A program made the translations under genes and the position numbers. From assembly GCA_031370785.1 (NCBI GenBank), contig JANMQY010000124.1, positions 1 to 38,366 on the forward strand: a stretch of DNA of 38,366 bases. Direction: 5' to 3'. This stretch comes from Candidatus Eiseniibacteriota bacterium (GTDB lineage: Bacteria; Eisenbacteria; RBG-16-71-46). Of this stretch, positions 5,937 to 26,079 are shown one piece after another. Positions within the stretch are counted from its first letter, which is position 1, and every line of letters begins with the position of its first letter. The notes below the pieces were generated by a model that saw nothing but the letters and a program-made list of their open reading frames with translations, ran no database searches and was not told the origin of the DNA.

Positions 5937-6079
5937 GACTCTTCCCCTTCAAAGTCAGAGGGCGACTTCTTTCAGCTCTGAGCAGGATCCTCGATCGAGC
6001 GGCGCCTCGGTTCGGAATCCCGGGCTTCTTCGCCCATCGCGAGTCTCGGTGCCAAACCGTCTCGATCACGCTGCATCTT

Positions 6080-6973: not shown

Positions 6974-9179
6974 GTGGTTCTCGGCTCGCGTGATCTGGAT
7001 TCGTCGACCGGGTCTGGAGCAGTCGCAGTGCGTTCAGGATCACGAGCAGCGACGCCCCCATGTCGGCCGCGACCGCGCTCCACAGCGTGGCGCGGCCCGC
7101 GAATGCGAGCGCGACGAAGACGACCTTCACGAGCACTGAGAAGACGATATTCTCGCGAATGATCGCCACCGTTCGCCGGGAATGACGAATCAGCCATGGC
7201 AGCCTGGACAAGTCGTCCGACATCAGGGCGATGTCGGCCGTTTCGATCGCCGCATCGCTTCCAGCCGCTCCCATAGCGATTCCCAGACTTGCGGTGGCCA
7301 TGGCGGGCGCGTCGTTCACGCCGTCCCCGATCATGGCCACGGCGCCATGCTGTTTCACCAGCTCGAGCACCGCTGTGACCTTGTCTTCCGGCAAGAGCTC
7401 GGAGCGCACCTCGTCGAAATGGAGGGCTTTGCTCACCACCTCGGCCGTGCTTCGATTGTCGCCGGTGAGCAGGACCAGCCGCTCGACACCGAGCCGGCGG
7501 AGTTCTTCGAGCACTCCCTGAGTCTCAGCGCGCGGGCGATCGGAAAGGGCGATCACTCCGCAGACATGACGCTCGTTTCCAACGACCACGACTGAGCTGC
7601 CGCAACTGGACATGCGTTCGATGATGTCGTGAACTTCGGGCTCCTCTTGCCCACGTTCCTCGAGATACCTGTGCGAGCCAACCCAGAACTCCTTGCCATC
7701 AATACGACCGGTCGCACCCTTGCCGGGGAGCAGGACAGCCTCGTCGGCGGCCGGCGCGTTGATGCCTTTGTCCGCCGCAAACGCCAGCACGGCGCGCGCC
7801 AAGGGATGGGTGGAGCGACTTTCGAGCGCAACCGCTCGCTCGATCAACTCGTGGTCGGTATGGCCGTTCAGGGGCGCCACGGATGACACCTCCAAACGTC
7901 CCTCGGTGACGGTTCCGGTCTTGTCGAAAGCAATCGCCTTGAGCCGGGCGGGGATTTCGAGAAAGAGCCCCCCCTTGACCAGCACGCCAGCGCGCGCGGC
8001 CGAGGCAAGCGCCGCAACGATGCTGACCGGGGTCGAGATCACGAGCGCGCAGGGGCAGGCGATCACCAGCAGCACCAGCGAGCGGTAGAACCACATGCTC
8101 CAGGAGCCCATCGAGAGCAATGGCGGGATCAGAGCGAACGCGAGCGCGAGCACCATGACTGTCGGTGTGTAGCGGCGCGCAAAACGATCGACCCACTGTT
8201 CCGCACTGCCCCGCTTCGACTGAGCGTCACGCACGAGACGGATGATCTTCGCGAGCGTCGTGTCACTGGCGGGCCGCGTGGTACGAACCTCAAGCGCTCC
8301 ATCGCCGTTGATGGATCCGGCGAATACGTCGGCCCCGGGCTCCTTCAGCACGGGCAAGCTCTCTCCTGTGATCGGGGCCTGATTGATGGCGCTGCTGCCA
8401 GCCTCGACGACACCATCGAGCGGCACGCGCTCCCCGGGACGCAAGATGAAGGTCGCGCCCACTGAGACCGTCTCGATCGGCTGGTCTTCCTCCCCGGTGG
8501 CCAGCTTCACCCTCGCCATGGGCGGGCTCAGGTCGAGGAGTGCTGCGACCGCACGTCGCGCACGGCCGATGCTCCATGCTTCGAGTGACAGCGAGAGAGC
8601 GAACAAGAATGCGACGCTCGACGCCTCGAACCACTCGCCGAGGGCGATCGCCCCAATGATGGCGACCGTCATCAGAAGATTCATGTCAGGCCGGAGCCGC
8701 ACAGCGGAGATCCAGGCCTTGCGGAGGACGAACCGCAGCCCCGAGGCGGTCCCGAGCAGATAGAGAACGATCGGAATGATGGGCACTGCGTGGCTGTGTC
8801 CGAGCCCCTCGCGCCCGAGCGCCTGCAAGGGACCGCCAGCCAAGATGGCGTGGGCCGCAAATCCTGCGGCCGAGAAGGCGCCACTCAGGATCGTGTACAA
8901 GTTGCGCTCGCGCCGGTCGTCGTGTATTTGGAGCCCGCTCGTCGGCCTCGACTCTTGAAAGAGCTCAGCACGCATGCCGGTTCGTGCTACCGCGGCGATG
9001 ACGGCGCCGGCTGGGGTCGCGGCATCCACCACCGTCATCGTCCCACCCAGAATGTCGAAGGACAGGCGCTCCGCTCCACCGACCACAGGTCCGACCTCCC
9101 GGCGGAGCGCAGCCACCTCCTCCACGCAGTCGAGGCCGTGAACCCTGAGTCGCAGCTTTCCTGAATCCTTGGTCATCAT
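6960..9179 (-). CDS. Heavy-metal translocating P1B-type ATPase (CadA/ZntA-like)
   Basis: ITGES, ACPCAL, DKTGT, STHP, TGDN and GDGVNDAP motifs; K in TM7 and D in ADMG; N-terminal HMA-like GLDCVEE. Confidence 0.95.
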   Translation of the reverse strand: MMTKDSGKLRLRVHGLDCVEEVAALRREVGPVVGGAERLSFDILGGTMTVVDAATPAGAVIAAVARTGMRAELFQESRPTSGLQIHDDRRERNLYTILSGAFSAAGFAAHAILAGGPLQALGREGLGHSHAVPIIPIVLYLLGTASGLRFVLRKAWISAVRLRPDMNLLMTVAIIGAIALGEWFEASSVAFLFALSLSLEAWSIGRARRAVAALLDLSPPMARVKLATGEEDQPIETVSVGATFILRPGERVPLDGVVEAGSSAINQAPITGESLPVLKEPGADVFAGSINGDGALEVRTTRPASDTTLAKIIRLVRDAQSKRGSAEQWVDRFARRYTPTVMVLALAFALIPPLLSMGSWSMWFYRSLVLLVIACPCALVISTPVSIVAALASAARAGVLVKGGLFLEIPARLKAIAFDKTGTVTEGRLEVSSVAPLNGHTDHELIERAVALESRSTHPLARAVLAFAADKGINAPAADEAVLLPGKGATGRIDGKEFWVGSHRYLEERGQEEPEVHDIIERMSSCGSSVVVVGNERHVCGVIALSDRPRAETQGVLEELRRLGVERLVLLTGDNRSTAEVVSKALHFDEVRSELLPEDKVTAVLELVKQHGAVAMIGDGVNDAPAMATASLGIAMGAAGSDAAIETADIALMSDDLSRLPWLIRHSRRTVAIIRENIVFSVLVKVVFVALAFAGRATLWSAVAADMGASLLVILNALRLLQTRSTNPDHASREPRAHA

Positions 9180-9202
9180 GCTCTCTACCCCGCAGCTCAG
9201 AC

Positions 9203-9541
9203 TCAGATCGCCTCGTCGCCCGACTGACGGCTGCGAATGCTGACAACAGTCTCAACCTCGACCACGAATACTTTGCCATCTCCCTTGCGGCCGGTGTGGG
9301 CCCCGCGCACGAGCGCTTCGACGAGGCCTTCCGCGTCGAGATCACGGCACAGGATCTCGAGCTTCACCTTGGGCGTGAAGTCGACTGCATAGTCGGACGC
9401 ATGGTGCGGATAACTCTCGTCCTTCTCGCGTCCGAATCCTCTCACGTCCGAGACCGTAACCCCATGAACATGGACTTCGCGCAGCTCGTGGAGCACGCGG
9501 GTCAGCATGAATGGCTGAATGTACGCTTCGACTCGCTTCAT
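9203..9541 (-). CDS. P-II family protein (czc-associated type)
   Basis: MKRVEAYIQPF...GVTVSDVRGFGR...PKVKLEI...AHTGRKGDGKVFV.....IR, 112 aa from the ATG at 9541; the ORF-track N-terminal extension is a shadow of the RND gene. Confidence 0.92.
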   Translation of the reverse strand: MKRVEAYIQPFMLTRVLHELREVHVHGVTVSDVRGFGREKDESYPHHASDYAVDFTPKVKLEILCRDLDAEGLVEALVRGAHTGRKGDGKVFVVEVETVVSIRSRQSGDEAI

Positions 9542-9552
9542 CGGTGACTCCG

Positions 9553-12500
9553 CTAGATCTCCACGTCCCGCCGTTCGAGCCAACGGTAGAGGATGGGGAG
9601 CAGGAAAAGGGTCAGGAGTGTGGAAGTGACGAGCCCGCCGACGACCACCGAAGCCAGCGGGCGCTGGATCTCGGAGCCGGGGCCGCTCGCGATCAACAAC
9701 GGGATGAGGCCCAGCCCTCCGACGAGCGCGGTCATCAACACTGGTCGCAGGCGCAGCTCGCCACCGCGCAGGATGGCGTCTTGAAGCGTCGCTCCCTCCC
9801 GGCGGAGCTGGTTGAAGTACGAAACCATCACCACGCCATTCAGAACTGCCACACCGAAGAGGGCGATGAACCCCACCGATGCGGCGACGCTGAGATTCTG
9901 TCCGGAGATGAAGAGTCCAATCACCCCGCCGATCAGTGCGAACGGGATGTTCAGCACGATCAGCACAGCGTTGCGAAGGGATCCGAAGCTCGTGAACAGC
10001 AACAGGAAGATCAGCAGCACGACCAGCGGTACGACGATCGACAGCCGCGCCATGGCGCGTTGCTGATTCTCGAACTGGCCGCCCCAGGTGACGAAGTACC
10101 CGGTCGGAAACGTGACTTCGCGGTTGACAGCCCTCTGGGCCTCCGCGACGAACGAGCCCATGTCCCTCCCGGTGACGTTGCATTCGATGACGATTCGCCG
10201 TTGGCCACTCTCTCGGCTCACCTGGGCAGGGCCCTCGACGACTCGGATGTGCGCGAGCTGGCTGAGCGGCACACGCTGGCCCTCCTCGGTCGTCACCAAC
10301 AGGTCCTGGAGATGAGTGGGGTCGGAGCGAACCAGTTCCGAGAACTTCACGACGACCGCGAAGCTCCGCTGCCCTTCGCGCAGCACCGTCGCCTCGCTGC
10401 CGCCGATGGCGGTCTCGATGATGGTCTGGATATCGGCCACATTGATCCCATAACGGGCGATGCGCTCGCGGTCGATGTCGACCTCGAGGTACGCCGTGCC
10501 GGCGATTCGTTCGAGATTCACGTCGGCGGCGCCGCGAACCTGTCGTATGACGCGCTCGACCGCTTCGCCCTTCTCGAGCAGTATATCGAGATCGTCACCG
10601 AAGATCTTGATCGCCACCTGCGCCTTGACTCCCGAGACGAGCTCGTCCACACGTAGCTGGATGGGCTGCGAGAAGCTGTAGGACATTCCAGGGATGGTCT
10701 CGAGGCGCGCGCGGATCTTCTCCACGAGTTGCTCGCCCGTTTTCGCGGTTTTCCATTCCGATCGCGGGCGCAGGTTTGCGATCACGTCGCTGACCTCGAG
10801 CCCCTCCGGATCGGCCGCGATGTCGGCACGCCCGGTCTTCGAGACCACCGTTGTGATCTCGGGGAACGAGCGGAGGACGCGCTCGACCTCCAGCTCCATC
10901 TGCCTGGAACTCGAGAGCGAGACGCTCGGCAGCCGGAACGTCTGCAGTCCGATCGCACCCTCGTCGAGCGGGGGCATGAACTCTCGGCCGAGCCGCGTGA
11001 ACAGGAGGCCGCTCACGACGAGCCCGCCCAGAGCGAGAGCCACTGGCACCTGCCAGCGCTCGAGGCACCAGCGCAACGCCGGTAGGTAGAGTCGCTTGGC
11101 ACGCGCGACGAGCCAGGTGTCGCGCTCGGAGAGCCGTCCCTTGAGCAGGAATGTCGACAGCACCGGAACAAGCGTCAATGAGAGCACGAGAGAGCCGGCC
11201 AGCGCCGTCGCGATGGTGAAGGCGAGCGGCGCGAACATCTTGCCCTCGAAGCCCTCGAGCGTGAAGAGCGGCAGGAACACCACGGTGATGATCGAGATGC
11301 CGAACACGATCGGCCGCGCGACCTCCAGAGCGCTCTCCCGCACGGCCTCCACGATATTGCTCTTGCCTTGATCCTCGGCCAGATGTCGGAAGATGTTCTC
11401 GGTCATAACCACCGCGCCATCGACGATCATGCCGATGCCGATCGCGAGCCCTCCGAGGGACATAAGATTGGCGGAGTAACCGAAGGCGTTGAGCAGGATG
11501 AAGGCGACCAGTGCCGAAAGCGGCAGCACAAGCGTCACGATCAGCGCGCTGCGAAGGTTGCCGAGGAACAGGATGAGGACCACCAGCACCAGCACCCCAC
11601 CCTCGAGGAGGGCTTTCGTCACGGTGTGCATCGCGCGATCCACAAGCTCGGTGCGATCGTAGAAGGGTACGACCCGGACGTCCTTCGGAAGCGCCTTGTG
11701 GACGGTGGCGAGCTTCTCTTTGACTGCAGCCACCACGTCCCTCCCGCTCGCGCCTTTCAGCATCAGGACGATGCCCGCCACCGCTTCGCCCTTGCCGTCG
11801 CGAGTGACGAGGCCCTGCCTCGGCTCCGCGCCGATCTTCACGTCGGCGATGTCGCGCACGAAGATCGGCGTGCCGCCGCGGTGCGCGACGACGATCCGGC
11901 CGAGGTCTTCGGCGGACTTCGCGAGCCCGAGGCCACGGACGACGTACTGCTCGCCGCTGTGCTCGATGTATCCGCCGCTCGCATTGGCATTGTTCTCGGC
12001 CAGTGCTTCGAGCACCTGGCGCAGCGTCAGGCGAAAGCTCGTCAGTTTTTCGGGGTGCACGAGGACCTGGTACTGCCTCACCAGCCCACCGAAACTGTTG
12101 ACATCGGTCACGCCCGGTACGCCACGAAGGATCGGCCGCACCACCCAATCCTGAAGGGTGCGCAGTTCCATGGCATCCCGGCGGGGGCTCTCGAGCGTGT
12201 ACTGGTAGATCTCGCCGAGCCCGGTCGAAATGGGCCCCATCTCGACATTCACCCCCGGTGGCAGCTTCTCGCGTGCCTGCTGGAGTCGCTCGAAGACGAG
12301 CTGGCGCGCGAAGTAGGTATTGACGTTGTCCTTGAACACGACAGTGACAACCGAGAGGCCGAGCTTCGATTTCGAGCGGACCTGCGTGAGCCCGGGCAGA
12401 CCGCCCATGCTCACCTCGATCGGATAGGTCACGAGCTGTTCCACCTCGACCGGGGCCATGCCGGAAGCCTCGGCAAGGATCTGAACCTGAACATTCGTGA

Positions 12501-12621
12501 CATCGGGAAACGCATCGATCGGAAGCTGCGTGACGGAGTGGACGCCGAAACCAATCAACGCGATGCAGGCGAGAATGACGAGCAAACGCTGGCGCAGAGC
12601 AAGAGTGACGAGGCGGTCCAT
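9553..12621 (-). CDS. CusA/CzcA family heavy-metal efflux RND permease (module 1)
   Basis: LPIDAFPDVTNVQV, TM4 GGLAIGIGMIVDGAVVMTEN, RLRPVLMTA and GSEIQRPLA; ATG at 12621 with GAGGAG SD. Confidence 0.95.
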   Translation of the reverse strand: MDRLVTLALRQRLLVILACIALIGFGVHSVTQLPIDAFPDVTNVQVQILAEASGMAPVEVEQLVTYPIEVSMGGLPGLTQVRSKSKLGLSVVTVVFKDNVNTYFARQLVFERLQQAREKLPPGVNVEMGPISTGLGEIYQYTLESPRRDAMELRTLQDWVVRPILRGVPGVTDVNSFGGLVRQYQVLVHPEKLTSFRLTLRQVLEALAENNANASGGYIEHSGEQYVVRGLGLAKSAEDLGRIVVAHRGGTPIFVRDIADVKIGAEPRQGLVTRDGKGEAVAGIVLMLKGASGRDVVAAVKEKLATVHKALPKDVRVVPFYDRTELVDRAMHTVTKALLEGGVLVLVVLILFLGNLRSALIVTLVLPLSALVAFILLNAFGYSANLMSLGGLAIGIGMIVDGAVVMTENIFRHLAEDQGKSNIVEAVRESALEVARPIVFGISIITVVFLPLFTLEGFEGKMFAPLAFTIATALAGSLVLSLTLVPVLSTFLLKGRLSERDTWLVARAKRLYLPALRWCLERWQVPVALALGGLVVSGLLFTRLGREFMPPLDEGAIGLQTFRLPSVSLSSSRQMELEVERVLRSFPEITTVVSKTGRADIAADPEGLEVSDVIANLRPRSEWKTAKTGEQLVEKIRARLETIPGMSYSFSQPIQLRVDELVSGVKAQVAIKIFGDDLDILLEKGEAVERVIRQVRGAADVNLERIAGTAYLEVDIDRERIARYGINVADIQTIIETAIGGSEATVLREGQRSFAVVVKFSELVRSDPTHLQDLLVTTEEGQRVPLSQLAHIRVVEGPAQVSRESGQRRIVIECNVTGRDMGSFVAEAQRAVNREVTFPTGYFVTWGGQFENQQRAMARLSIVVPLVVLLIFLLLFTSFGSLRNAVLIVLNIPFALIGGVIGLFISGQNLSVAASVGFIALFGVAVLNGVVMVSYFNQLRREGATLQDAILRGGELRLRPVLMTALVGGLGLIPLLIASGPGSEIQRPLASVVVGGLVTSTLLTLFLLPILYRWLERRDVEI

Positions 12622-12625
12622 GCGA

Positions 12626-13738
12626 TCACTCCTCGCCCAACTGGCTCTTGGATGCCTGCGACTTGAGCAGGAACCCGCCGCGGGTCGCGACGCGCTCTCC
12701 CGGGCGGATGCCGCTGAGAATCTCGGCGCGATTCCCGCCCAGCGACCTGACTTCAACCGGCCGGACCACGAACGTGGAGTCCGTGAGGGCGACGTACATG
12801 ACCTTGAGATCACCCTGCGACTGGACGGCGGCTTCATCGACCACAAGGGCGCTCCGCGTCGAGCCGGTGGCGATGCGGGCCGAAACGAACATGCCGGGCC
12901 TGAGTTTGAGGCCAGGATTCATCAGTTCGAGGCGGACATCGAGCGTGCGAGTCGCCTCCTTGATCGAGCCTTCGAGACTGACGACGCGGCCGCGGAAGAC
13001 GAGGTTCGGGAATGCCGTGGTGCTGAGCGCGGCGGCCTGTCCAACGTGCAGCCGGCCGAGGTCACGCTCGTAGGCATCCACCACCGCCCAGACCTCACTG
13101 AGGTCGACGATGCCGAACAGGTCAGTTCCTGCCGCAACCTGACGACCAACACTGGCCTCGACCTCGGTCACGACTCCCGAGATCGGGCTGCGCATTGGCA
13201 GGGTGGGAATCGCCTCGTGGGTGCGATCGAGTCGATCGAGGTCCTCGGCCCCCGCGCCCAGAAGCTCCAGTCGCTGGCGGGCGGAGCGCGCGACGCTCTG
13301 GAACGCGGTGACATCGCCACCGACCGCTTCGGTGCGCGCGTGGGCGAGCAGATAATCGCCCTCCGCCGCCGAGAACTCCGGGCTGTAGAGCGTGGCCAGC
13401 ACCTGGTTGCGGGTGACGTGGTCGCCGATCACGGGTTTGACAGCCTGGATCGTGCCCGACACGCGCGTCGAGACGTGAGCGATATTGAGCGGCTTGGGCT
13501 GGATCTGCCCGCTGACGACGACGGTGTCCGCGAGTGGCTGCTTGATCAAGGTCTCCACGCGGACCTCACCGCTGGACAGGCTCGCGGCGGGGACGTGGAT
13601 GATCGAGTCGGGCGCCGCGGCCGCCGCGGGAGTTTCCTGCTTGGCTGCCCCGCAACTGACAACGGCAAGCTGGCCGAGGAACAGGACGAACAGCAGTAGA
13701 CGACGTGTCCTAGAGTAAGTTCGCATGTCGGTGTTCAC
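12626..13738 (-). CDS. RND efflux periplasmic adaptor (CzcB-like MFP), probable lipoprotein
   Basis: Lipobox-like VVSC; LYSPE, SPISGVV, DLSEVW, TRT..VR and LRPGMF motifs; lies between the OMF and RND genes. Confidence 0.92.
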   Translation of the reverse strand: MNTDMRTYSRTRRLLLFVLFLGQLAVVSCGAAKQETPAAAAAPDSIIHVPAASLSSGEVRVETLIKQPLADTVVVSGQIQPKPLNIAHVSTRVSGTIQAVKPVIGDHVTRNQVLATLYSPEFSAAEGDYLLAHARTEAVGGDVTAFQSVARSARQRLELLGAGAEDLDRLDRTHEAIPTLPMRSPISGVVTEVEASVGRQVAAGTDLFGIVDLSEVWAVVDAYERDLGRLHVGQAAALSTTAFPNLVFRGRVVSLEGSIKEATRTLDVRLELMNPGLKLRPGMFVSARIATGSTRSALVVDEAAVQSQGDLKVMYVALTDSTFVVRPVEVRSLGGNRAEILSGIRPGERVATRGGFLLKSQASKSQLGEE

Positions 13739-14997
13739 TCCGCGACCGCGAGGTCGGTCAGGGCAAGTTCGTAGTTGAGCAGCGCCCGGATGTGTTCGAG
13801 TTCGATCGAGCGGAAGGTCCGCAGGGTCTCGAACAGCTCGAGCCCGGTGATCTGACCGGCCTGGTAGTTCTGGATGGCGGTCCGGAACGCATCAGAGGCA
13901 TCGCTGAGCAGCACGCGGTCGAACTGTTGTACCTGTCGCTCCGCGCTGCGGGCGGATTCGAAGGCGTTGCGCAACGCCAAGTCCACCTCCCGTTCCACCA
14001 CCTCGAGTCGCGCTTGCGCGCTTCCCCGCGTAGCGCGCGCCTCGCTGATCCGCGCTCGCCGATCGGTCCACGGCGCGAACGGCAGGGAGAAAGAGATCTC
14101 GCCGCCCATGCCCGAGCGGTCGGAGCCCGGCACTCGGTCCAGCCCCGCGCTGATGGAGGTGAATGGCAGCATTCCGTTTCGGGCGAGCGCCACCTGTGCC
14201 CCGCCGCGCTCGACCTCGAGCCGGGTCGCTCGCAGGCGAGGACGGGACGCCATGGCCTGCCGTAAGACCGACTCGAGGCTGTCGGAGAGCGGCATGTAGG
14301 TCAGGGAATCCGCGGCCTCCAAAGGCTCGGCGGGGGCGCGAGCCATGAGAGCCTTGAGCGTGTTCCGGTCCTCTCGAAATGCACGCTCGGCCTCGACGGC
14401 ATCGTTTTCGATCCGGATGCGTTCCGACCGGGCACGCAACACATCAAGGTACCGGGCACCGCCGGTGCGAAGCCGCGTGCTGACCATCTGCTCCAGATCT
14501 GCGGCGGTCTTGCGCAGGGTCTCGAGCGTGCGGATGCTGATGGCATCGGCCTGCAGGCGTCGGTAGGCACGGGTGACGTCGCCACGTAGCTTGAGCCCGA
14601 AGGATTCGCGATTCGCCTCGGCGATGGCGACGTCGATGCGGGCAACCGCTTTCGCGCGCCCCCGCCCTCCAGGCGCGCCCAGATCCTGAGACAGGCGAAC
14701 GGCGGCGTCATGTTCCTCGCCGCTCACCGGCGTGCCGAGCTTGCCGGCCTGGTAGCTCAGGCTCGGGGCCTCGAAGGCGCCCGCCTGGCGGAGTCTGGCC
14801 CTTGCGGCCTCGAGCTCTCCGTCGGCTATGCGGAGTCCGGGGTTGCTCTTGAGCGCAAGGGCAACGCACGAATCAAGGGTCAGCGATTGTGCGTGTGCAG
14901 GGCCCGGCGCGATGACCAGCCACGTCGAGACTCCGAACGCGGCGATCGCGAGCGACGAACGCCGCAACCGACAGATGGCATGGAACGACTGATTCAA
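13735..14997 (-). CDS. TolC/CzcC family outer-membrane efflux protein (module 1)
   Basis: AHA signal cleavage site, two OEP repeats (ALKSNP.L, ASRPRL, YQAGQI..LE). Start chosen as TTG 14997 because a GGAGGA SD precedes it; the ORF track gives 15039. Confidence 0.88.
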   Translation of the reverse strand: MNQSFHAICRLRRSSLAIAAFGVSTWLVIAPGPAHAQSLTLDSCVALALKSNPGLRIADGELEAARARLRQAGAFEAPSLSYQAGKLGTPVSGEEHDAAVRLSQDLGAPGGRGRAKAVARIDVAIAEANRESFGLKLRGDVTRAYRRLQADAISIRTLETLRKTAADLEQMVSTRLRTGGARYLDVLRARSERIRIENDAVEAERAFREDRNTLKALMARAPAEPLEAADSLTYMPLSDSLESVLRQAMASRPRLRATRLEVERGGAQVALARNGMLPFTSISAGLDRVPGSDRSGMGGEISFSLPFAPWTDRRARISEARATRGSAQARLEVVEREVDLALRNAFESARSAERQVQQFDRVLLSDASDAFRTAIQNYQAGQITGLELFETLRTFRSIELEHIRALLNYELALTDLAVAE

Positions 14998-15006
14998 GGG
15001 AACACT

Positions 15007-15087
15007 CCTCCGCTGGGCGAGTAGAAGGCTCGGCCTCAATACGAACGACCGCGAGGACCTGTCGGTCTCGCGGCCGCACAGCGGAGG
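15007..15087 (-). promoter_or_regulatory. SD-sequestering stem between leader 1 and OMF gene
   Basis: mRNA CCUCCGCUG(u)GCG (15087-15075) is complementary to CGC(c)CAGCGGAGG (15019-15007), which contains most of the GGAGGA SD. Confidence 0.75.
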
Positions 15088-15090
15088 GGA

Positions 15091-15513
15091 TCAGTTGCGG
15101 AGGATGGTCTTCCTGGAAGGGGCGAACGACGAGCGCGAGTCCCGTTCGGGCGCCAGAGGCGCCTCGTTCAGGGCCGCCGGCGACTGGATCGCAGCAACGA
15201 CCGTGGGGATTGGAGGCGCCATCTCCAGGGCAGTACTCAGGGCGTAGCCACGACCACGCAGGCGGAGCGCGCTCCCAGCAATGGGGATGTCGACGCATTC
15301 GCCACAGCAATCGGACCCGATCTGAGACGCAGCAGGCTCAACGGCGTCGTTCACGGTGGGCGCGTACTGGACGCAAACATTCTGCCCGGCCTCAATGGTC
15401 AGGTGTCCGTTGGGGGCGAGACAAAGCACGGCCTGGCTCGCCCGAACCGGGAGTCCGGCGAGCGTCATGAGCGCCAGGTAACAGCAGATCGTCAGCCGAA
15501 CAGGAGAGCGCAT
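15091..15513 (-). CDS. Small exported Cys-rich leader protein 1 (140 aa, ends TILRN)
   Basis: MRSPVRLTICCYLALMTLAGLPVRA signal-like start; VLCLAPNGH, DCCGECVD; Pro/Ala-rich tail. It fills the gap between two operons and has its own promoter-like boxes. Confidence 0.8.
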   Translation of the reverse strand: MRSPVRLTICCYLALMTLAGLPVRASQAVLCLAPNGHLTIEAGQNVCVQYAPTVNDAVEPAASQIGSDCCGECVDIPIAGSALRLRGRGYALSTALEMAPPIPTVVAAIQSPAALNEAPLAPERDSRSSFAPSRKTILRN

Positions 15514-15521
15514 GCGGTGAA

Positions 15522-15551
15522 AAGCTAGTGGGCCACGCCTTGTGCTGTCAA
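15522..15551 (-). promoter_or_regulatory. Sigma70-like promoter of leader 1 (probably leaderless mRNA)
   Basis: TTGACA (15551-15546), 18 nt, TAGCTT (15527-15522), 8 nt, then ATG; no SD. Confidence 0.65.
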
Positions 15552-15617
15552 ACACGTGGACTGACGCCCGCGCCGGCCGATTCCGTCCCCGCAAGGTGAT
15601 TCGAAATGGGTCTCGCA

Positions 15618-18600
15618 TCAAACCGGGCCAGCCCCACGCTCTGGGCTCCTTGTCCTGTGGGTCACAGCATAGAGAGTCGGCAACACGATGAGCGTGAGAA
15701 TCGTCGAGGAAAGAATGCCGCCAATGACGACCGTTGCGAGCGGCCGCTGCACTTCGGCGCCGGCCCCTGTAGCGAGTGCCATCGGAACGAACCCGAGCGC
15801 AGCGACCAGCGCCGTCATGAGAATGGGCCTCAGCCGTCGAGTGCATCCATCCACAACTGCGAGGTCGACCTCCAGTCCGTCCGCGACTCGCTGCCTTACG
15901 AACGACAGCAGCATGACTCCATTGAGGACCGCGACGCCGGAGAGCGCGATGAAGCCGATCCCGGCCGTGATCGAAAACGGCATCTGGCGCATGGCCAACG
16001 CGAGCACACCTCCGGTGAGCGCCAGGGGAACTCCGCTGAAGACAACCAGCGCGTCGCGTAGTGATCCAAATGCGAGGACGAGGAGCGCCAGAATGAGCAC
16101 CAGTGCCATCGGCACCACGATCGCGAGTCGGTTGCGCGCCGTCACGAGGTTCTCGAACTGCCCGCCCCACCCGAGCCAGTAGCCAGCGGGAAGCGGAACC
16201 GATGTATCAATCGTGTGCCGGGTTTCGGCCACGAAGGAGGCGAGGTCCCGTCCGCGGACATTCGCCTGGACCACGACTCGCCGCTTGCCATTTTCGCGAC
16301 TCACCTGATTGGGTCCCTCCTCGAGTCGGATATGCGCCACGGCGTTCAAGGGCACGAACTCGACGCGCTCGTCACGAGAGGCGCCCGCAGCATCGTGTCG
16401 CCCGGGGATTGGTATCGGAAGCATCTCGAGCGCGGCGACATCATGCCTCGCCGGCTCAGGCAGGCGAACGATGATCGGGAAGCGACGATCCCCGGTAAAA
16501 AGCTCTCCCGCCTGTGTACCACTGAGAGCGGTGCGGACCACGTCCTGAACGTCCGCGAGGTTGATTCCGAAGCGTGCCACGGCCTTCCGGTCGATCTCGA
16601 TGGCGAGCGTCGGCAACCCGATCACCTGTTCGACTTTCACGTCGGTGGCCCCCCGCACGGAGCGAACGACACGGGCGATGCGATTCGCAGTCGTGAGCAT
16701 CGTGTCGAGATCGTCGCCGAATACCTTGATGGCGACATCGCTTCGCACCCCGGCGATGAGCTCGTTGAAGCGCATCTGGATCGGTTGCGTGAACTCGTAG
16801 GCGTTCCCCGGGAGCGACGAGAGCCTCCGCTCCATCTCCTCGACTACCTCCCCCTTTGGTTTCTTCGGGTCCGGCCACTGCCGTCGCGGCTTCAGCATCA
16901 CGAAGGTGTCCCCCGTGCTGATCGGCATCGGGTCATTGGCGACTTCGGCCGTGCCCAACCGCGAGAACACCTCACGCACCTCCGGCATGCTTGCGATCGT
17001 GGCCTCGACCTTGTGCTGCATCGCCACGGCTTGATCGACGCTGATTCCGGGCATGCGCACAGGCTGGACCAGGATGTCCTGCTCATCGAGAGTAGGAACG
17101 AACTCGCCGCCAAGACGCGTGGCGAGAGCGATGCACAGCACCAGAAGCGCAGCAGTTCCGGCAAGGATCGACTTGCGGTGGGCAAGTGCCCAGCGCAGCA
17201 CGGGCAAGTAGATATGCCGGACCCAACGCACCACGTGGCTTTCCGCCTCCGCAACGCGCCCGCGAACGATCAGCGCCATCAGCGCCGGCACGAAGGTGAA
17301 GGCGAGCACCAACGCTCCCGCGAGCGCAAAGAGCACGACCTCCGCGAGTGGGCGGAACATTTTGCCCTCAACGCCGGTGAGAGTCAGAATCGGTAGATAG
17401 ACGATCATGATGATTGCGACCCCAAAGAGGGTCGGGCGGGCGACTTCACGGGCGCCGGCATAGCTTTCGTGGAGCCGCTCGGGAAGGGCGAGAACGCGAC
17501 CGAGTTCGTGTTGGCGAAGGCTCAACCGTCGCAGGATGTTCTCGACCATCACCACAGCCCCATCGACAATGATCCCGAAATCAATCGCTCCGAGGCTGAG
17601 AAGATTGGCGCTGACTCGACCCTCAACCATTCCGCTCACTGCCATCAGCATCGAGAGCGGGATGACGAGCGCCACAATCAGCGCGGCGACCCAATTCCCG
17701 AGCAGCACGAAAAGCACCGCGATCACCAGAAGGGCGCCCTCGAGGAGATTCTTACGCACGGTTTCCAGCGTTGCGTCGACGAGATGAGTGCGGTCGTAAA
17801 CCGGCCGCGCCACGACGCCTGGCGGCAACGAACGATTGATCTCCTTCAGTCGCTCTCCGACACTTCTCGCCACCGCCCGGCTGTTCTCGCCGAACAGCAT
17901 GATGGCGGTGCCGATGACGGTCTCCCTCCCGCGGCTGGTAGCCGCGCCGGTGCGAAGCTCCTGTCCCAGCACGACCCTGGCAACATCGCTGACACGGATC
18001 GGCACGCCGCCACGCGTCGCAACCACGACCTGCGCGATGTCGTCGGGAGAGGACAGTCGCCCGTCGGTGTGAACCAGGTACTGCTCGCCCTTGTGCGGCA
18101 GGAATCCAGCTCCGACCGCCTGATTGTTGTGCTCGAGAGAAAGCAGGATATCGTTGAGCGTGAGGCCATAGGCGCGTAGCCGTGCCGGATCGGGTTGAAC
18201 GTCGTATTGCTTGCGGAATCCGCCGATCGTATTGACCTCGGTGACGCCCGGAGTGTTGCGAAGCTGCGGCTTGATGATCCAGTCCTGGATCTCTCGAAGG
18301 TCGGTAGCCGTATAGACAGAACCGTCGGGCTTGCGCGCGTCGGGTGCGGCCTCCACTTCCCACAGGAATATGTCGCCGAGCCCGGTCGCGATCGGACCCA
18401 TCATCGGCTCGGCGATCCCGCGCGGCAGGTTTTCCCGCGCCTCCTGCAGCCGCTCGTTCACGAGCTGTCGGGCGAAGTAGATATTCGTCCCGTCGCGAAA
18501 CACGACGGTGACCTGAGAGAGTCCGTAGCGGGAGAGTGACCGAGCCTCCACCATCCCGGGGAGGCCTGCCATCGCTGTCTCGATGGGAAAGGTGACCTGT

Positions 18601-18824
18601 CGCTCGATGTCGAGCGGAGGCAACCCCTCGACGACAGTGTTGATCTGCACCTGAACGTTGGTGATGTCCGGCACGGCATCGATCGGCAGCCGTCTGAGAT
18701 TGAACAACCCGTAGCTCGCGAGGGCGGCAGTGATGACGACGACCGACCACCGATGAACGATCGAGAAACGAAGCACGCGCTCGAGGAGCGTCTGCGCTTC
18801 CGGCAGGCTGGTATCAGTCTTCAT
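15618..18824 (-). CDS. czcA: CzcA-type divalent-metal efflux RND permease (module 2)
   Basis: LPIDAVPDITNVQVQIN, canonical TM4 GAIDFGIIVDGAVVMVEN, FTQPIQMRFNELIAGVRSD and GAEVQRPLATVV. Confidence 0.95.
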   Translation of the reverse strand: MKTDTSLPEAQTLLERVLRFSIVHRWSVVVITAALASYGLFNLRRLPIDAVPDITNVQVQINTVVEGLPPLDIERQVTFPIETAMAGLPGMVEARSLSRYGLSQVTVVFRDGTNIYFARQLVNERLQEARENLPRGIAEPMMGPIATGLGDIFLWEVEAAPDARKPDGSVYTATDLREIQDWIIKPQLRNTPGVTEVNTIGGFRKQYDVQPDPARLRAYGLTLNDILLSLEHNNQAVGAGFLPHKGEQYLVHTDGRLSSPDDIAQVVVATRGGVPIRVSDVARVVLGQELRTGAATSRGRETVIGTAIMLFGENSRAVARSVGERLKEINRSLPPGVVARPVYDRTHLVDATLETVRKNLLEGALLVIAVLFVLLGNWVAALIVALVIPLSMLMAVSGMVEGRVSANLLSLGAIDFGIIVDGAVVMVENILRRLSLRQHELGRVLALPERLHESYAGAREVARPTLFGVAIIMIVYLPILTLTGVEGKMFRPLAEVVLFALAGALVLAFTFVPALMALIVRGRVAEAESHVVRWVRHIYLPVLRWALAHRKSILAGTAALLVLCIALATRLGGEFVPTLDEQDILVQPVRMPGISVDQAVAMQHKVEATIASMPEVREVFSRLGTAEVANDPMPISTGDTFVMLKPRRQWPDPKKPKGEVVEEMERRLSSLPGNAYEFTQPIQMRFNELIAGVRSDVAIKVFGDDLDTMLTTANRIARVVRSVRGATDVKVEQVIGLPTLAIEIDRKAVARFGINLADVQDVVRTALSGTQAGELFTGDRRFPIIVRLPEPARHDVAALEMLPIPIPGRHDAAGASRDERVEFVPLNAVAHIRLEEGPNQVSRENGKRRVVVQANVRGRDLASFVAETRHTIDTSVPLPAGYWLGWGGQFENLVTARNRLAIVVPMALVLILALLVLAFGSLRDALVVFSGVPLALTGGVLALAMRQMPFSITAGIGFIALSGVAVLNGVMLLSFVRQRVADGLEVDLAVVDGCTRRLRPILMTALVAALGFVPMALATGAGAEVQRPLATVVIGGILSSTILTLIVLPTLYAVTHRTRSPERGAGPV

Positions 18825-19773
18825 GGCCGCCCGCTTCCTTCTCGAGTTCGGCCTTCAGCCAGAACGCGTTCCTGGCCACGATGCGCGCGCCGCGTTCGAG
18901 TCCCGAGACGATCTCGGTTGTCGTTCCGTCGCTTCGACCAACCGTCACCGGCTGTACCTCGAATCCCGATGAATCGGCGCGGAACACCGCCGCTCCCGTG
19001 CCCATCCGGACGATCGCATCCTCGGGCACGGCGACCGGCACGGTGACGCGTTCGACCACGGCAACCGCTGTCACGAGCCTCCCCGGCTGCCAGCGGCCAT
19101 CGCGATTTGGAAGCACGACGCGCGCATAGGTGCTTCGCGTGTCCACGTCGAGGAGCGGCCCCACGTAGCTGATCGTGCCGGTCGCCGCGATCGAAGGCCC
19201 ACCCTCGGTTCGCACGTGGACCACCTGGCCGCGGCGAATCCGACCCAGATGCTGCACATAGATGGGAAAGTCGAGCCACACGCTCGAGAGATCCGCCACC
19301 GTGTAGAGCACGGATTCGTGATCCACGACCGCGCCCGGGTTGGCGGGACGACCAACGATCGTCCCTGCCATCGGGGCGGTCACGACGTATTCACTGAGAC
19401 TTTCGTTGCTGTAGATCACGCCCAGCGGTTGTCCGCGCGTCACCCAACTTCCAAGCTCTGCCTGCATTGAAACCACGCGACCGGCATAGGTCGGGCGCAC
19501 ATCGACGCTGCGTTCCGCGTTGAGCTTGATCTCGCCGGGAAGCTCGAACGCGACCTCGATTGATTGCGCCCCTGCCCTGCCGAGAACGATTCCGGCGCTG
19601 CGAATCGCATCGTCGGAAAGCTCGACCACGGTCCCGCCATGCGGTCCGGTCGTGTGAGCCTCCTCGTGGTGTTCCTCGGCGGCAGGGTTCGGCTTCCCAC
19701 AGCCAGCGAGCGCCAGGGCGCCTGCGAGAAGCAGGCTGACCGGCACATGTAATCCCGGGATGCGTCGATTCAT
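18814..19773 (-). CDS. czcB: CzcB-like RND periplasmic adaptor, lipoprotein with His-rich N-terminus
   Basis: LAGC lipobox, EEHHEEAH..PHGG, ADLSSVW, TR...ARVVLPN..GRW.PG; ATG at 19773 overlaps the OMF stop and has a GGAGGAG SD. Confidence 0.88.
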   Translation of the reverse strand: MNRRIPGLHVPVSLLLAGALALAGCGKPNPAAEEHHEEAHTTGPHGGTVVELSDDAIRSAGIVLGRAGAQSIEVAFELPGEIKLNAERSVDVRPTYAGRVVSMQAELGSWVTRGQPLGVIYSNESLSEYVVTAPMAGTIVGRPANPGAVVDHESVLYTVADLSSVWLDFPIYVQHLGRIRRGQVVHVRTEGGPSIAATGTISYVGPLLDVDTRSTYARVVLPNRDGRWQPGRLVTAVAVVERVTVPVAVPEDAIVRMGTGAAVFRADSSGFEVQPVTVGRSDGTTTEIVSGLERGARIVARNAFWLKAELEKEAGGHED

Positions 19774-21050
19774 CGCTCCTCCTTCGGGGCGGGCAGCCCG
19801 GTTCCTGCGAGTAGTGCGAGGCGCATGCGTGCGCGCCACAGATCGGCTTGCGCGTCGATGAGAGCAAATTCGGTTTGCAGGAGGTTGCTCTGTTCGGCGA
19901 CGAGATCGAGGTAGCTCGACCGGCCGGCGCGATATCCGCGGAGCAACTCGTCCACCACCTGTTCGCGCGCGGGACGCACGCGAAGTCGCAGGGTGTCGAA
20001 GACCGCGGTGGCGGCTTGAAGCCGCTCGATGGCGGTCATGCGCGCGACGTCCAGCCTCTGCTCGGTTGCCCGCCGCTCTGCGACGGAGGCTTCCAGCTCA
20101 TGACGTGCTCCGGCGATGTCACCGGCCCCGCGATTCCAGAGTGGAAGCGGTACTTCCACACCTGCTACGAACCCGGTGCCGGGAATCTCTTCCAGCCGGC
20201 GCGCCCCGGCCGACAGAACGACGTCCGGAATCCGGGCTGCTGTGGCGACATGAACGCGGGCCATCGCCAGGGCTTCATTCGCGGAGGCACGAGCCAGCTC
20301 GGGATGAGGTTGGGGCTGCGATCGCCACAAGGCCGTATCGTCAGGCGCGGGCGCGACCAGGGAATCGAAGTCGGCCTCGGACGCGCCCCAGGTGAGGGCG
20401 AGTTCCTGGCGAGCAACATCGAGTTCCGACCCGGTGCGCCGCCGCTCCACGGCCTGCGCCAACGCCTGGCTCTGCGCTCGAAGGATCTCCAGCCGTGGCG
20501 ATGCGCCCGCTCGATACCGCTCCGTGGCCGCACGGATGGCTTGATCGGTGAGGTGTTCGCCTTCCCGAAGCTGTCGGAGACGAGTTTGGAGTGCCCAGGC
20601 AGCGATGAAACGATCGGCGGCCACGGCCAGCCCTTCGCTCCCGAGGACGTCGGTCTCGGCAGCCGCCAGCCTGTACTCGGCATCAGCGGTGGCGATGCGC
20701 GCCCGGCGGTCGCCTCCGAGTTCGAACGCCTGGCCGATCGCCGCCGTGGCTTCACGATGGCTCCCGCCCAACTGCCCGCCGAAGTTCTCTTCAGTGGCAC
20801 TCAGGGTCGGGTTCGGGCGGCGACCCGCATCCCCGATTCGCGCGCGCGCCGCCTCGGCGCGCAGGCCGGCGGGTCGAAGTCGCGGCTCGTACCGCCTCGC
20901 GAGCGCGAGGGCACGCTGAAGGGTCAGAGGACCCGTTACGACGGCAATGGTGTCCGGTGGTGTCGGCGCGGCGCCCGCCGTGGCGTCGAACGACGCAACA
21001 GCCACGACCAGCATCGCGCAGCGGCAGCCGGCTCTCGCGGATGAGAGCAC
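19770..21050 (-). CDS. czcC: CzcC/TolC family outer-membrane efflux protein (module 2)
   Basis: PNPTL...EN, Q.FELGG.R.ARI, RIPD, VPLPLWNR and YRAGRSSYLD; GTG start with AAGGAG SD 8 nt upstream. Confidence 0.9.
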   Translation of the reverse strand: MLSSARAGCRCAMLVVAVASFDATAGAAPTPPDTIAVVTGPLTLQRALALARRYEPRLRPAGLRAEAARARIGDAGRRPNPTLSATEENFGGQLGGSHREATAAIGQAFELGGDRRARIATADAEYRLAAAETDVLGSEGLAVAADRFIAAWALQTRLRQLREGEHLTDQAIRAATERYRAGASPRLEILRAQSQALAQAVERRRTGSELDVARQELALTWGASEADFDSLVAPAPDDTALWRSQPQPHPELARASANEALAMARVHVATAARIPDVVLSAGARRLEEIPGTGFVAGVEVPLPLWNRGAGDIAGARHELEASVAERRATEQRLDVARMTAIERLQAATAVFDTLRLRVRPAREQVVDELLRGYRAGRSSYLDLVAEQSNLLQTEFALIDAQADLWRARMRLALLAGTGLPAPKEER

Positions 21051-21059
21051 GCAATGATC

Positions 21060-21131
21060 TCCTTCGAGCCAGGGATGTCCGACCTTGGGCGCGCAAACGC
21101 GCGCCGGTTCAGATTCGGGCAGCTCGAAGGA
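21060..21131 (-). promoter_or_regulatory. SD-sequestering stem between leader 2 and czcC
   Basis: mRNA UCCUUCGAGC directly after the leader stop (21131-21122) is the perfect complement of GCUCGAAGGA (21069-21060), which covers the SD. Confidence 0.8.
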
Positions 21132-21512
21132 TCAACAACGAAGGATTGGCAGGCGCGTTCCGGGGGGTTCGCCGACCCAGAAGACCTGGGTTTCTGCGAC
21201 GAGCGGGGCAAGAACGACCAGGCACGATGCGGTGAACTGTGAGGCCGACACCGGCGCATGAGCCGCAAATGTGCGGGCACTTCTGACGGCGCTGAATGCT
21301 TCGTCCCGGCACGGCCCGCAGTCCGGTGTGCCGGGCGTGCCAATCGCAGCCGCGGCGGTGCCGACACCGACCCATGCGCACGCGCAGTGACCCAACTCCG
21401 GCCTCTCGCTCCCATCCGAAGAGATACAGATGGAGCCGCTCACCATCGGCGGCAAGACGAGGATCAGTTGGAGCAGCACCAGGACTCGGACGCGCCAGCT
21501 CGGAACGCTCAT
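21132..21512 (-). CDS. Small exported Cys-rich leader protein 2 (126 aa, ends PILRC)
   Basis: MSVPSWRVRVLVLLQLILVLPPMVSG signal-like start; ICISSDG..E.GHCAC and DCGPCRD align with the leader 1 motifs. Confidence 0.8.
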   Translation of the reverse strand: MSVPSWRVRVLVLLQLILVLPPMVSGSICISSDGSERPELGHCACAWVGVGTAAAAIGTPGTPDCGPCRDEAFSAVRSARTFAAHAPVSASQFTASCLVVLAPLVAETQVFWVGEPPGTRLPILRC

Positions 21513-21663
21513 GGGCCGATAACTCTCGTGGAAGGGCCGGCAGCGGTCAAGCAGTAGGTCGGCCTCACTCCGCCATTTTGCAGAAGCAGAAAGCCTTGTG
21601 CCTTGCCAAACTGGGCTGGCGAAGGACATGAAGGCCGTGATGGCGCTCCGGACCGACGATTTT

Positions 21664-21720
21664 CACAGCATCACTCCAGAGGTGGGCAACTGTCCCCGGG
21701 GACAATTGCCACAGCATCAC
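21664..21720. repeat. 26-bp near-perfect palindrome flanked by 11-bp direct repeats
   Basis: GGCAACTGTCCCC|GGGGACAATTGCC (21685-21710, one mismatched pair); CACAGCATCAC at 21664-21674 and 21710-21720. Confidence 0.8.
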
Positions 21721-22082
21721 CTCTTGCGGACTGGTTTGGTCTCCGGTTTCTCCTCGACGAGCTGCTTGATCGCCGCGAGGCGCTTGTCCCATTGCTCCGA
21801 GATCAGGTCGAGACAGCTCCCCGCCTCCACGAGCCGCTGCGGCTCGATCTCCCAGCGACTCTCCCGCCCACTGCGGCTGCCGCGCACCAGCCCGGCATCG
21901 GCGAGCATGATCAGATGCTTGGTGATCGCCTGACGCGTGATTGCGGTTCCGGTCGTGAGCTGAGCGATCGACTGGGGCCCGCCCTCAGACAGTCGGGCCA
22001 CCAGCCGCAGCCGCGTTTCGTCCCCGAGTGCGGCGAAGATGGGCGCGGAGGTCCTGAGCCGCGCCCCCGTCGACGCCGCCAT
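21717..22082 (-). CDS. ArsR/SmtB family transcriptional regulator (SRPBCC-associated type)
   Basis: FAALGDETRLRLV.RL, ITRQAITKHL..LADAGLV, GRE..W and QWD.RL motifs; TGATG coupling with the upstream gene. Confidence 0.88.
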   Translation of the reverse strand: MAASTGARLRTSAPIFAALGDETRLRLVARLSEGGPQSIAQLTTGTAITRQAITKHLIMLADAGLVRGSRSGRESRWEIEPQRLVEAGSCLDLISEQWDKRLAAIKQLVEEKPETKPVRKR

Positions 22083-22456
22083 CACTTCGACCGGTTGAGA
22101 TACTCGTCGATCGCCTTCATCTGACCTGCCCAACCCCTCTCGTTCATCTCGAATGCCTTCGCGCGACGAGCGAACGGAATCTGATCGAAGCCGGACTCGG
22201 TCACGGTGAGCACTGTGCCCTCCGCGACCTCCTCAAGGGTAAACTCGACGAGCGTGGTGGGCTCCTTGGAGTAGTCATAGCCGGGTTCGATCGGGTACGG
22301 GTGCCAGCGGAACGAGAACATTCGCTCGAGTTCCATCTTCTCGATCGTGATTTCCAACGGGCAGTCCTCGTATCCCTTGTGCTTGATCTTCCCCTGGACC
22401 CGGGCGCCGACATTCGCGTCGGTCAGGGCGCGCCATACGCGGGAGCGCGGTGCGCG
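22082..22456 (-). pseudogene. SRPBCC/AHSA1 family protein, 5'-truncated with internal deletion
   Basis: RAPRSRVWRALTDA then directly GARVQG...FSFRWHPY..YDYSKEPTTLVEF...VTESGFD...N..GW. The usual N-terminal strand and the FG.WF segment appear absent, and there is no credible start. Confidence 0.7.
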
Positions 22457-22521
22457 ATCGTAAGTCGTCCAGTGGCGCGGCCCTGGGGTACGAATCGGCG
22501 GCGCATCCAGGCCCCTCGTAC

Positions 22522-26069: not shown

Positions 26070-26079
26070 GGCTGCCTCA

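Follow-up and report, generated by a model that had tools for sequence, protein, structure and literature searches.

A helix linking the stop codon of a conserved small gene to the Shine-Dalgarno sequence of heavy-metal efflux operons in Eisenbacteria: a possible CutF-like translational gate

The 38,366-nucleotide (nt) contig JANMQY010000124.1 of Candidatus Eiseniibacteriota bacterium (assembly GCA_031370785.1), hereafter the window, carries a structured RNA element, Leader 1, immediately before the gene of a CzcC-like outer-membrane efflux protein (OEP). An earlier note on the sequence had described this element as a leader. This label does not hold, because a separate open reading frame (ORF) of 140 amino acids (aa), real and conserved, adjoins the 5' side: Leader 1 is a 93-nt intercistronic spacer and not a 5' untranslated region. 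This small ORF A is also separate from the resistance-nodulation-division (RND) transporter gene of the preceding pump operon, which ends at 15618. The features of the locus, with the anti-Shine-Dalgarno (anti-SD) and Shine-Dalgarno (SD) sequences, are the following, in window coordinates; all positions discussed for Leader 1 refer to the minus strand.

15551..15546, minus strand: -35-like hexamer TTGACA (pattern count)
15527..15522, minus strand: -10-like hexamer TAGCTT, 8 nt before the ATG (pattern count)
15513..15091, minus strand: small ORF A, 140 aa plus TGA, with its ATG at 15513 (translation, family alignments)
15104..15097, minus strand: second anti-SD copy, UCCUCCGC, within the Ile-Leu-Arg codons, directly repeating the post-stop arm (sequence)
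15093..15091, minus strand: stop codon TGA of the small ORF (sequence)
15087..15075, minus strand: 5' (anti-SD) arm of the closing helix, CCUCCGCUGUGCG, beginning 3 nt past the stop (sequence, folding, covariation)
15073..15049, minus strand: inner GC-rich hairpin of 10 bp with one bulge and a GACA loop (folding and compensatory changes)
15032..15018, minus strand: small hairpin CGAG-N7-CUCG with the pyrimidine-rich loop CCUUCUA (alignment of spacers and constrained fold)
15019..15007, minus strand: 3' arm of the closing helix, CGCCCAGCGGAGG, containing the SD GGAGG at 15011..15007 (sequence, folding)
14997..14995, minus strand: TTG start of the CzcC-like outer-membrane gene, 9 nt past GGAGG (orthologue comparison)

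The two arms of the closing helix are complementary at 12 of 13 positions, with a single U/C mismatch at 15078/15016, and place the SD 9 nt 5' of the TTG. Folded with RNAfold, the 99-nt RNA from stop to start has a free energy of -48.6 kcal/mol (z-score -4.27) and a 116-nt version of the spacer one of -52.3 kcal/mol (z -4.45), with 0 of 200 shuffles as good in either case. The inner hairpin reaches -16.8 kcal/mol on its own (z -4.2, again 0 of 200 shuffles as good). Sequence and folding thus bear out both the pairing of a stop-adjacent arm with the SD arm and the hairpin enclosed between them, as the earlier note had described. The minimum free energy (MFE) structure retains the outer 9 bp of the closing helix, CCUCCGCUG with CAGCGGAGG; in place of the last 3 bp, the inner hairpin can be extended by 4 pairs, which makes this part of the helix one of two alternatives. 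From the end of the inner hairpin at 15049, 29 nt lead to the 3' arm. The small hairpin is not significant when folded alone (z +0.28), and a constrained fold makes its loop (15028..15022) an alternative partner of the SD once the 5' arm is blocked.

The anti-SD of Leader 1 occurs as a direct repeat, within the Ile-Leu-Arg codons (15104..15097) and past the stop (15087..15081). With 45 nt of upstream context added, the MFE structure pairs the SD with the Ile-Leu-Arg codons, replacing the post-stop arm; this copy too would be covered by a terminating ribosome. Folding supports a default state in which the SD is sequestered, and the description of that state as tightly off stands as a thermodynamic prediction, with a cost of 13.9 kcal/mol for opening the ribosome-binding site (RBS). 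No Rfam family matches at gathering score across the whole window, nor at E ≤ 1 in 14950..15150. A scan for intrinsic terminators (GC stem followed by a T run of at least 5 in 8) did not call the inner hairpin in 14700..15800 and called none in 20900..21800.

To place Leader 1 among its relatives, 56 distinct related loci were collected, in 52 of which an SD-led start could be placed; 54 entered the promoter count, and a search of genome contigs with a smaller alignment gave 8 loci. As a score we took the probability (P) of pairing between the SD and the 20 nt that begin with the stop codon. It is at least 0.5 in 47 of the 52 loci, which make up 32-34 sequence-distinct groups, and averages 0.79 over all loci as compared with 0.22 for dinucleotide shuffles of the spacer. 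Among 377 co-directional, SD-led spacers of 40-160 nt from the same genome, 55 (15%) reach 0.5 and 7 reach 0.8, with a mean of 0.18; the gene calls for this control were rough, being based on GC content at third codon positions (GC3) and ORF length, and some of the pairs are expected to be wrong. The anti-SD lies within 0-12 nt past the stop, and the 5'-most partner of the SD in the MFE structure is found 1-9 nt from the first stop base in 46 of 52 loci. Most spacers (41 of 52) measure 75-104 nt, and 13 have a length of exactly 93 nt. An OEP gene follows in 46 of the 56 loci (blastx match to the window OEPs within 1.5 kb), and 5 of the remaining 10 have fewer than 400 nt of downstream sequence. 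Five loci (L037, L024, L025, L048 and L071) have enough downstream sequence and no OEP match there, and the family may control genes of another kind at these places.

The helix also covaries. In a MAFFT alignment of 16 spacers, RNAalifold retains only the stop-to-SD helix, with double changes in 4 of its 8 pairs. Pair 10-92, for example, is CG in 9 sequences, UA in 5 and UG in 2. When the Leader 1 structure is imposed on the 16 spacers, 75.6% of the cells are paired, compared to 39-55% with slid partners, and 0 of 500 shuffles attain the covariation score. The inner spacer sequence varies among loci; within the close orthologues, the inner hairpin (helix 2) is conserved through compensatory changes, 6 of its 7 pairs being altered on both sides.

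The weak TTG that the earlier note gave as the likely start is supported by comparison: in close orthologues the corresponding codon, 9 nt past GGAGG, is TTG or GTG, and blastx matches to the window OEP begin at residue 1 in 7 other loci (L006, L004, L020, L035, L022, L008 and L009). No SD precedes the next TTG in frame (duplex energy +1.2 kcal/mol). The downstream start is GTG in 25, TTG in 15 and ATG in 12 of the 52 loci, and control starts picked by the same rule (n = 377) comprise 171 GTG, 39 TTG and 167 ATG. Weak start codons thus seem to be part of the design of what we propose below to be a translational gate; such TTG and GTG starts are easily miscalled in annotation.

The same arrangement recurs twice more in the window, as modules B and C, each upstream of its own pump genes:

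21512..21048, minus strand: module B, whole (sequence, folding; OEP, membrane-fusion protein and RND genes downstream)
21512..21132, minus strand: module B small ORF, ending ...PILRC-stop (sequence)
21131..21122, minus strand: module B 5' arm, immediately past the stop (sequence, fold)
21069..21060, minus strand: module B 3' arm with the SD (sequence, fold)
21050..19770, minus strand: module B OEP, GTG start at 21050 (Pfam search)
29533..28986, minus strand: module C, whole (sequence, folding; OEP, membrane-fusion protein and RND genes downstream)
29533..29093, minus strand: module C small ORF, ending ...TTILRL-stop (sequence)
29089..29080, minus strand: module C 5' arm, 3 nt past the TAG (sequence, fold)
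29002..28993, minus strand: module C 3' arm with the SD (sequence, fold)
28988..27612, minus strand: module C OEP, ATG start at 28988 (Pfam search)

The arms are UCCUUCGAGC with GCUCGAAGGA in module B (spacer z -3.8, P = 0.77 by the score above) and CUUCCUUCGG with CCGGAGGAAG in module C (spacer z -3.6, P = 1.00). Arm sequences and enclosed hairpins differ from those of Leader 1 in both modules, and the anti-SD begins 0-3 nt past the stop. The small ORFs of B and C share 25-30% identity with ORF A, Ile-Leu-Arg being invariant. A fourth copy with the same layout and its own arm sequences is present on contig 56 of this genome. In module B, as in Leader 1, the anti-SD is duplicated, with AUCCUUCG occurring twice (21146..21139 and 21132..21125). 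Genes of the OEP, HlyD_D23 and ACR_tran families follow each of the three small ORFs of the window, a metal-homeostasis context as in CutF-like systems.

Small ORF A encodes a signal-peptide-like N-terminal helix, a conserved core of Cys, His, Glu and Asp residues, a variable linker and the tail ...SRKTILRN, directly followed by the stop. The small ORFs of the window match no Pfam or NCBIfam family. A word-index protein search returned 2 proteins, one of them the window's own, and a full hidden Markov model (HMM) search was required to recover the family: a profile search of 1.84 billion representatives gave 1574 proteins at E ≤ 1e-3, counted as representatives at 50% identity, and 76 at E ≤ 1e-10. 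The profile matches in 13 of 61 close relatives, 53 of 206 Eisenbacteria genomes and 60 of 301 Planctomycetota genomes. Members are unannotated or mis-started in current annotation. C31 is invariant, G36, E41, C47, C70, C73 and D75 are kept in at least 90% of 135 sequences, and L138 is also conserved; a CGxCxD motif, putatively metal-binding, is present. Basic residues followed by a hydrophobic stretch open the protein in 14 of 14 aligned members, and the AlphaFold2 (AF2) model has a helix at residues 3-20; the protein is therefore predicted to be cleaved and exported. The model, built from the 135-sequence alignment with a predicted local distance difference test (pLDDT) value of 68.8, consists of the signal helix, a small beta unit at the cysteines and a short helix, and leaves the last ~50 residues, including the tail, unstructured.

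This tail is strongly conserved as R-T-x-h-L-R-x and always ends one residue past L-R at the stop; the logo of its last eight residues reads L R T [T/V/I] [I/V] L R [C/I/N]. Positions -3/-2 are LR in 113, LL in 20 and LQ in 5 of 151 proteins, and R-x3-L-[RLQ]-x-end is found in 89 of 150. The Arg codons used are CGC (36), CGT (5), CGA (4), AGG (3), CGG (2) and AGA (1). Because the Arg and Leu codons vary synonymously, the constraint acts on the peptide; the idea that the Leu-Arg codons are kept mainly for their anti-SD-like RNA was rejected on this ground and because R-7 and T-6 are conserved as well. The stop codon is TGA in 52 of 56 loci and is part of TGAT in 33 of 56, as against 62% and 11% genome-wide.

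Upstream of small ORF A, TTGACA is followed after 18 nt by TAGCTT and, 8 nt further, by the ATG at 15513. Of 54 related loci, 21 have the pattern TTGACN-N17/18-TAnnnT-N7-10-start, and 38 have it if the -10 hexamer is relaxed; the pattern is found in 1 of 10800 shuffles and at 1 of 377 other starts of this genome; an SD-like sequence precedes the small ORF in only 2 of 54. The promoter assignment rests on our own pattern count, and a stricter automated promoter scan of 14700..15800 did not call it. A -10 hexamer placed 7-10 nt before the ATG would imply a leaderless or near-leaderless operon mRNA, starting at or next to the ATG of the small ORF.

The footprint of the ribosome and the position of its helicase, reportedly mapped by Takyar in 2005, are such that, with the stop in the A site, ~9-12 nt beyond it are covered. 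The helix between the bases just past the stop and the SD is the one structure retained across lineages, so that only a ribosome finishing the small ORF would open the mask. We mimicked this ribosome in silico by blocking the first 12 nt counted from the stop, that is, the codon and the 9 bases after it. The mean RBS opening cost falls from 17.8 to 12.2 kcal/mol (mean drop 5.7), and 33 of 52 loci lose 5 kcal/mol or more; the Leader 1 values are 13.9 before and 9.9 kcal/mol after blocking. The locus fits what characterises coupling by RNA unfolding, namely a downstream RBS paired with a segment that the upstream ribosome can reach.

The closest known parallel is CutF of Rhodobacter capsulatus, a small protein that is exported via Sec and carries a CxxxC motif and, at its C-terminus, a proline motif, described as part of the copper-sensing CutF-cutO switch (PMC9973294; bioRxiv 10.1101/2025.02.05.636593). 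The DUF2946 family includes CutF and CruR of Bordetella pertussis, and the CutF authors count CzcI and CzcI2, encoded upstream of czcCBA, as CutF-like proteins without the proline motif (same sources). As described there, CutF resembles the present system in that the first cistron is small and encodes a Sec-type signal (predicted here), a metal motif built on cysteines and a conserved motif at the C-terminus, in the stem that shields the SD of the next gene with an anti-SD at the end of the small ORF, and in its position upstream of transition-metal homeostasis genes. The differences are several. The family described here lacks both a match to PF11162 and a proline/RAPP motif, and its R-T-x-h-L-R-x tail ends at the stop. 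The anti-SD lies past the stop, so that the acting ribosome would be terminating and not elongating, and the position of the tail points the same way. The helix is long-range, with ~80 nt enclosed, and not a local stem-loop, the target is a heavy-metal efflux (HME) RND pump, and the hosts are Eisenbacteria and Planctomycetota. In architecture, the gate is thus a variant of the CutF-type switch that falls outside its membership for want of the PF11162 match and the proline/RAPP motif.

PF11162 matches none of the 3 window small ORFs at E ≤ 10 and none of 206 Eisenbacteria genomes above cut-off. CzcI of Cupriavidus metallidurans plasmid pMOL30 itself matches PF11162 at an E-value of 0.026, below cut-off. 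The Atlas gives DUF2946 only for the closest cluster that has a Pfam family, where 23% of the members carry it. Pfam search and hhalign do not demonstrate homology to either CzcI or DUF2946. A separate observation concerns another Eisenbacteria genome (G023), where L110:1377-1926 (minus strand) holds a sub-threshold DUF2946-like ORF (PF11162 E 4.9e-4) with HHH...CAVC that ends ...RAPPLG-stop. A stop-adjacent anti-SD helix (GCCUCC... with ...GGAGGU) precedes the next ATG and is part of the MFE structure; the whole fold, with z -0.14, is no better than shuffles. A similar DUF2946-like ORF at L111 ends ...RAPPVLLPA.

CzcI of pMOL30 (L109:35177-35524) is likewise a small secreted Cys/His protein with a CGxC motif, encoded directly before czcC and described as co-transcribed with it, and czcI2 of the same organism is reported to be leaderless (PMC10127602). 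In contrast to the family described here, CzcI ends ...QWQRLA. The 75-nt czcI-czcC spacer (L109:35522-35602) has a strong hairpin beginning 5 nt past the stop of czcI (-25.6 kcal/mol, z -3.7, equalled by 0 of 200 shuffles), and folding of this spacer predicts no SD pairing. Coupling by RNA unfolding is described for E. coli rpmI-rplT (+52 nt), MS2 coat-lysis and f1 gene VII-IX (PMC12548453), with spacings that, as here, leave room for a second ribosome to bind before the first has left. Here, unlike in those examples, the upstream arm is outside the ORF and abuts the stop, the spacing is longer (93 nt), and the tail is suggestive of programmed pausing.

Arrest at a stop codon has its own precedents. 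TnaC is an arrest peptide acting at the stop codon. PepNL of E. coli is described as arresting at UGA (PMC11890864). The motif here likewise ends at the stop codon, with a strong preference for UGA (52 of 56 loci). These are short cytoplasmic leader peptides without sequence likeness to the 140-aa, predicted exported protein of this locus, for which arrest is putative. The secretion monitors SecM, VemP and MifM, which monitor Sec/YidC activity, are described as exported or membrane-targeted upstream ORFs of 100-170 aa in which the body varies and a C-terminal motif is conserved, and whose stalled ribosome melts a stem hiding the SD of the next gene, as proposed here (PMC7897499, PMC10987492, bioRxiv 10.1101/2025.02.05.636593). 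In contrast to the present case, they are described as stalling in elongation at RAPP/RAGP-like motifs and as controlling secretion genes (same sources).

Our leading reading, held tentatively and with somewhat less than even confidence, is that the spacer gates translation of a heavy-metal RND efflux operon, that a ribosome reaching the small-ORF stop opens this gate, and that the system probably acts as a CutF-like metal sensor. The operon mRNA would begin at or beside the small ORF ATG, and the product of this ORF would be exported, with four conserved cysteines and the R-T-x-h-L-R-x tail ending exactly at the stop. In free mRNA, the bases 0-12 nt past the stop would pair with the OEP SD ~80 nt downstream; as the inner hairpins hold the two arms together, the pump genes would remain untranslated. 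Only a ribosome on the last codons or the stop would cover and melt the anti-SD arm, freeing the SD. The conserved tail would lengthen the stay of this ribosome, for a time set by metal bound to the already exported N-terminal part, as in CutF, and pump synthesis would track periplasmic metal. The sequences show the fold, its place at the stop, its conservation and covariation, the operon setting and the conserved tail; the leaderless start, unmasking by the terminating ribosome, pausing and metal sensing are the steps that we infer.

All of the structural evidence fits equally well with a plain obligatory coupling by RNA unfolding, without sensing, and this is a serious possibility. Each finishing ribosome would briefly open the mask, so that the pump is made with, and in proportion to, the small periplasmic protein; the latter would be a CzcI-like pump modulator, and the function of its tail would lie in the mature protein, for instance in docking to a subunit of the pump. 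The RNA-unfolding model and its long-spacing cases rpmI-rplT and MS2 are described as established (PMC12548453), and CzcI, a periplasmic protein encoded before czcC and co-transcribed with it, is reported to quench CzcCBA in C. metallidurans (PMC10127602). The tail has none of the known stalling motifs and is kept in loci without the helix, which also suits plain coupling. However, an anti-SD past the stop, within reach of only a short-lived terminating ribosome, would be inefficient for constitutive coupling, and the tail is the best-conserved stretch besides the Cys core, ends one residue past L-R at the stop and is predicted to be unstructured. In addition, homology to CzcI is not demonstrable, and the pMOL30 czcI-czcC spacer has no predicted SD masking. 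We favour regulated pausing over plain coupling because the tail is unstructured and sharply conserved, the arm is reachable only by a terminating ribosome, and CutF provides a precedent.

The remaining explanations appear less probable. The narrowly kept spacer length and the enrichment of weak starts (TTG at 15 of 52 loci versus 39 of 377 controls) would suit termination-reinitiation over a compact fold, the helix and inner hairpins bringing the stop to the SD and start so that the same 30S or 70S ribosome transfers to the TTG or GTG. Scanning and reinitiation models are discussed in PMC12548453, but the same source describes coupling efficiency as falling steeply with distance, being reduced already by increases of <20 nt, and the strong conserved SD fits fresh 30S binding; we consider reinitiation improbable. 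We also regard as unlikely an element acting on the transcript, with the SD pairing being incidental: the small-ORF and pump messages would be parted by partial intrinsic termination or attenuation, or by a site of processing or RNA stability. Leader 1 and its closest orthologues do have a strong GC hairpin followed by a moderately U-rich stretch, C. metallidurans is reported to have czcI-only and czcICBA transcripts with mRNA dropping from czcI to czcC (PMC10127602), and the pMOL30 spacer has its post-stop hairpin. However, the terminator scan is negative and paralogues B and C have no U tract after their inner hairpins; moreover, the inner sequence varies and the only helix retained by RNAalifold, from stop to SD, is left unexplained by a terminator role. 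A ligand- or temperature-sensing RNA would account for a masked SD, as in many riboswitch and thermometer expression platforms, but the Rfam searches of the window and of the spacer region are negative, the interior is not conserved and thus offers no candidate binding pocket, and the stability of the whole fold, about -40 to -50 kcal/mol, greatly exceeds what a thermometer could have. That GC-rich sequence folded in this way by chance is countered by the conservation and by the control spacers of the genome, and we consider these last possibilities together very unlikely.

Several results weigh against a metal-sensing, pausing-dependent gate. Among 150 proteins, R[AGS]PP occurs in the last 20 residues of none and PPP in 9; we know of no stalling activity of R-T-x-h-L-R-x, and the conserved tail could serve the mature protein instead. 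PF11162 matches 1 of 135 family members at E ≤ 1 (best E 0.097), and hhalign of the family profile with pMOL30 CzcI gives a probability of 2%. Five of the 52 loci (L047, L023, L024, L049 and L071) lack the helix yet have the tail. In Planctomycetota, the helix is found in only 10 of 22 scorable loci, a rough lower bound because the start finder gave no SD-led start in 10 of 33 matched ORFs and a further one was of insufficient length; on visual inspection, a pyrimidine arm adjoins the stop in some of the loci that failed. In the folding with a blocked stop region, unmasking at equilibrium is partial, with the mean probability of an unpaired SD rising from 0.16 to 0.34, and an opening cost of ~10-12 kcal/mol is left. 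For Leader 1, the folding check put forward in the earlier note has a weaker outcome than for most copies: the opening cost falls only to 9.9 kcal/mol, and the probability of an unpaired SD falls from 0.14 to 0.03 because the SD re-pairs with the pyrimidine loop at 15028..15022.

The pump genes that follow Leader 1 form operon A, with these members:

14997..13735, minus strand: OEP, CzcC-like outer-membrane efflux protein, first pump gene (Pfam PF02321, E 1.1e-41)
13738..12626, minus strand: membrane-fusion protein (Pfam HlyD_D23, 4.5e-56)
12846..9553, minus strand: RND transporter ORF (Pfam ACR_tran, 1045 bits)
9553..9206, minus strand: P-II-like gene (domain searches)
9179..6960, minus strand: P-type ATPase (domain searches)
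6973..6080, minus strand: cation diffusion facilitator (CDF) transporter (domain searches)
5936..5103, minus strand: NicO-type transporter (domain searches)

The true start of the RND transporter is probably near the stop of the membrane-fusion protein gene. The region 5103..29533 (minus strand) is a metal-resistance island in which three HME-RND operons lie in tandem, and a separate small ORF and gate belong to each of them. In operon C, the membrane-fusion protein (26080..28044, minus strand) is encoded by an unusually long ORF of 654 aa, with a YtkA-like domain (PF13115, 8e-08) before HlyD_D23. The stretch 22082..23514 (minus strand), on the 3' side of RND transporter C, encodes a Cupredoxin_1 protein, whose domain spans residues 226-329 of the ORF as listed, and a protein of AHSA1/SRPBCC type.

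Control of heavy-metal RND pumps is generally ascribed to two-component systems or to regulators of the MerR/ArsR type. To this, a translational gate conserved in front of the pump genes would add a fast post-transcriptional layer, and this genome has four copies of it. It is conceivable, if rather doubtful, that the family, which occurs in Eisenbacteria, Planctomycetota and further phyla, constitutes a second large family of exported nascent-chain metal sensors, without detectable sequence relationship to DUF2946, in which a termination pause via the proline-free R-T-x-h-L-R-x-UGA tail, a leaderless mRNA and a stop-adjacent long-range anti-SD helix would turn on RND pumps when metal is present in the periplasm. 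If true, this would extend the CutF principle, the sensing of extracytoplasmic metal via a nascent exported chain, to a family unrecognised by current models, to a new class of targets and to little-studied phyla. If the proline-free tail really pauses termination, it would represent a new arrest motif.

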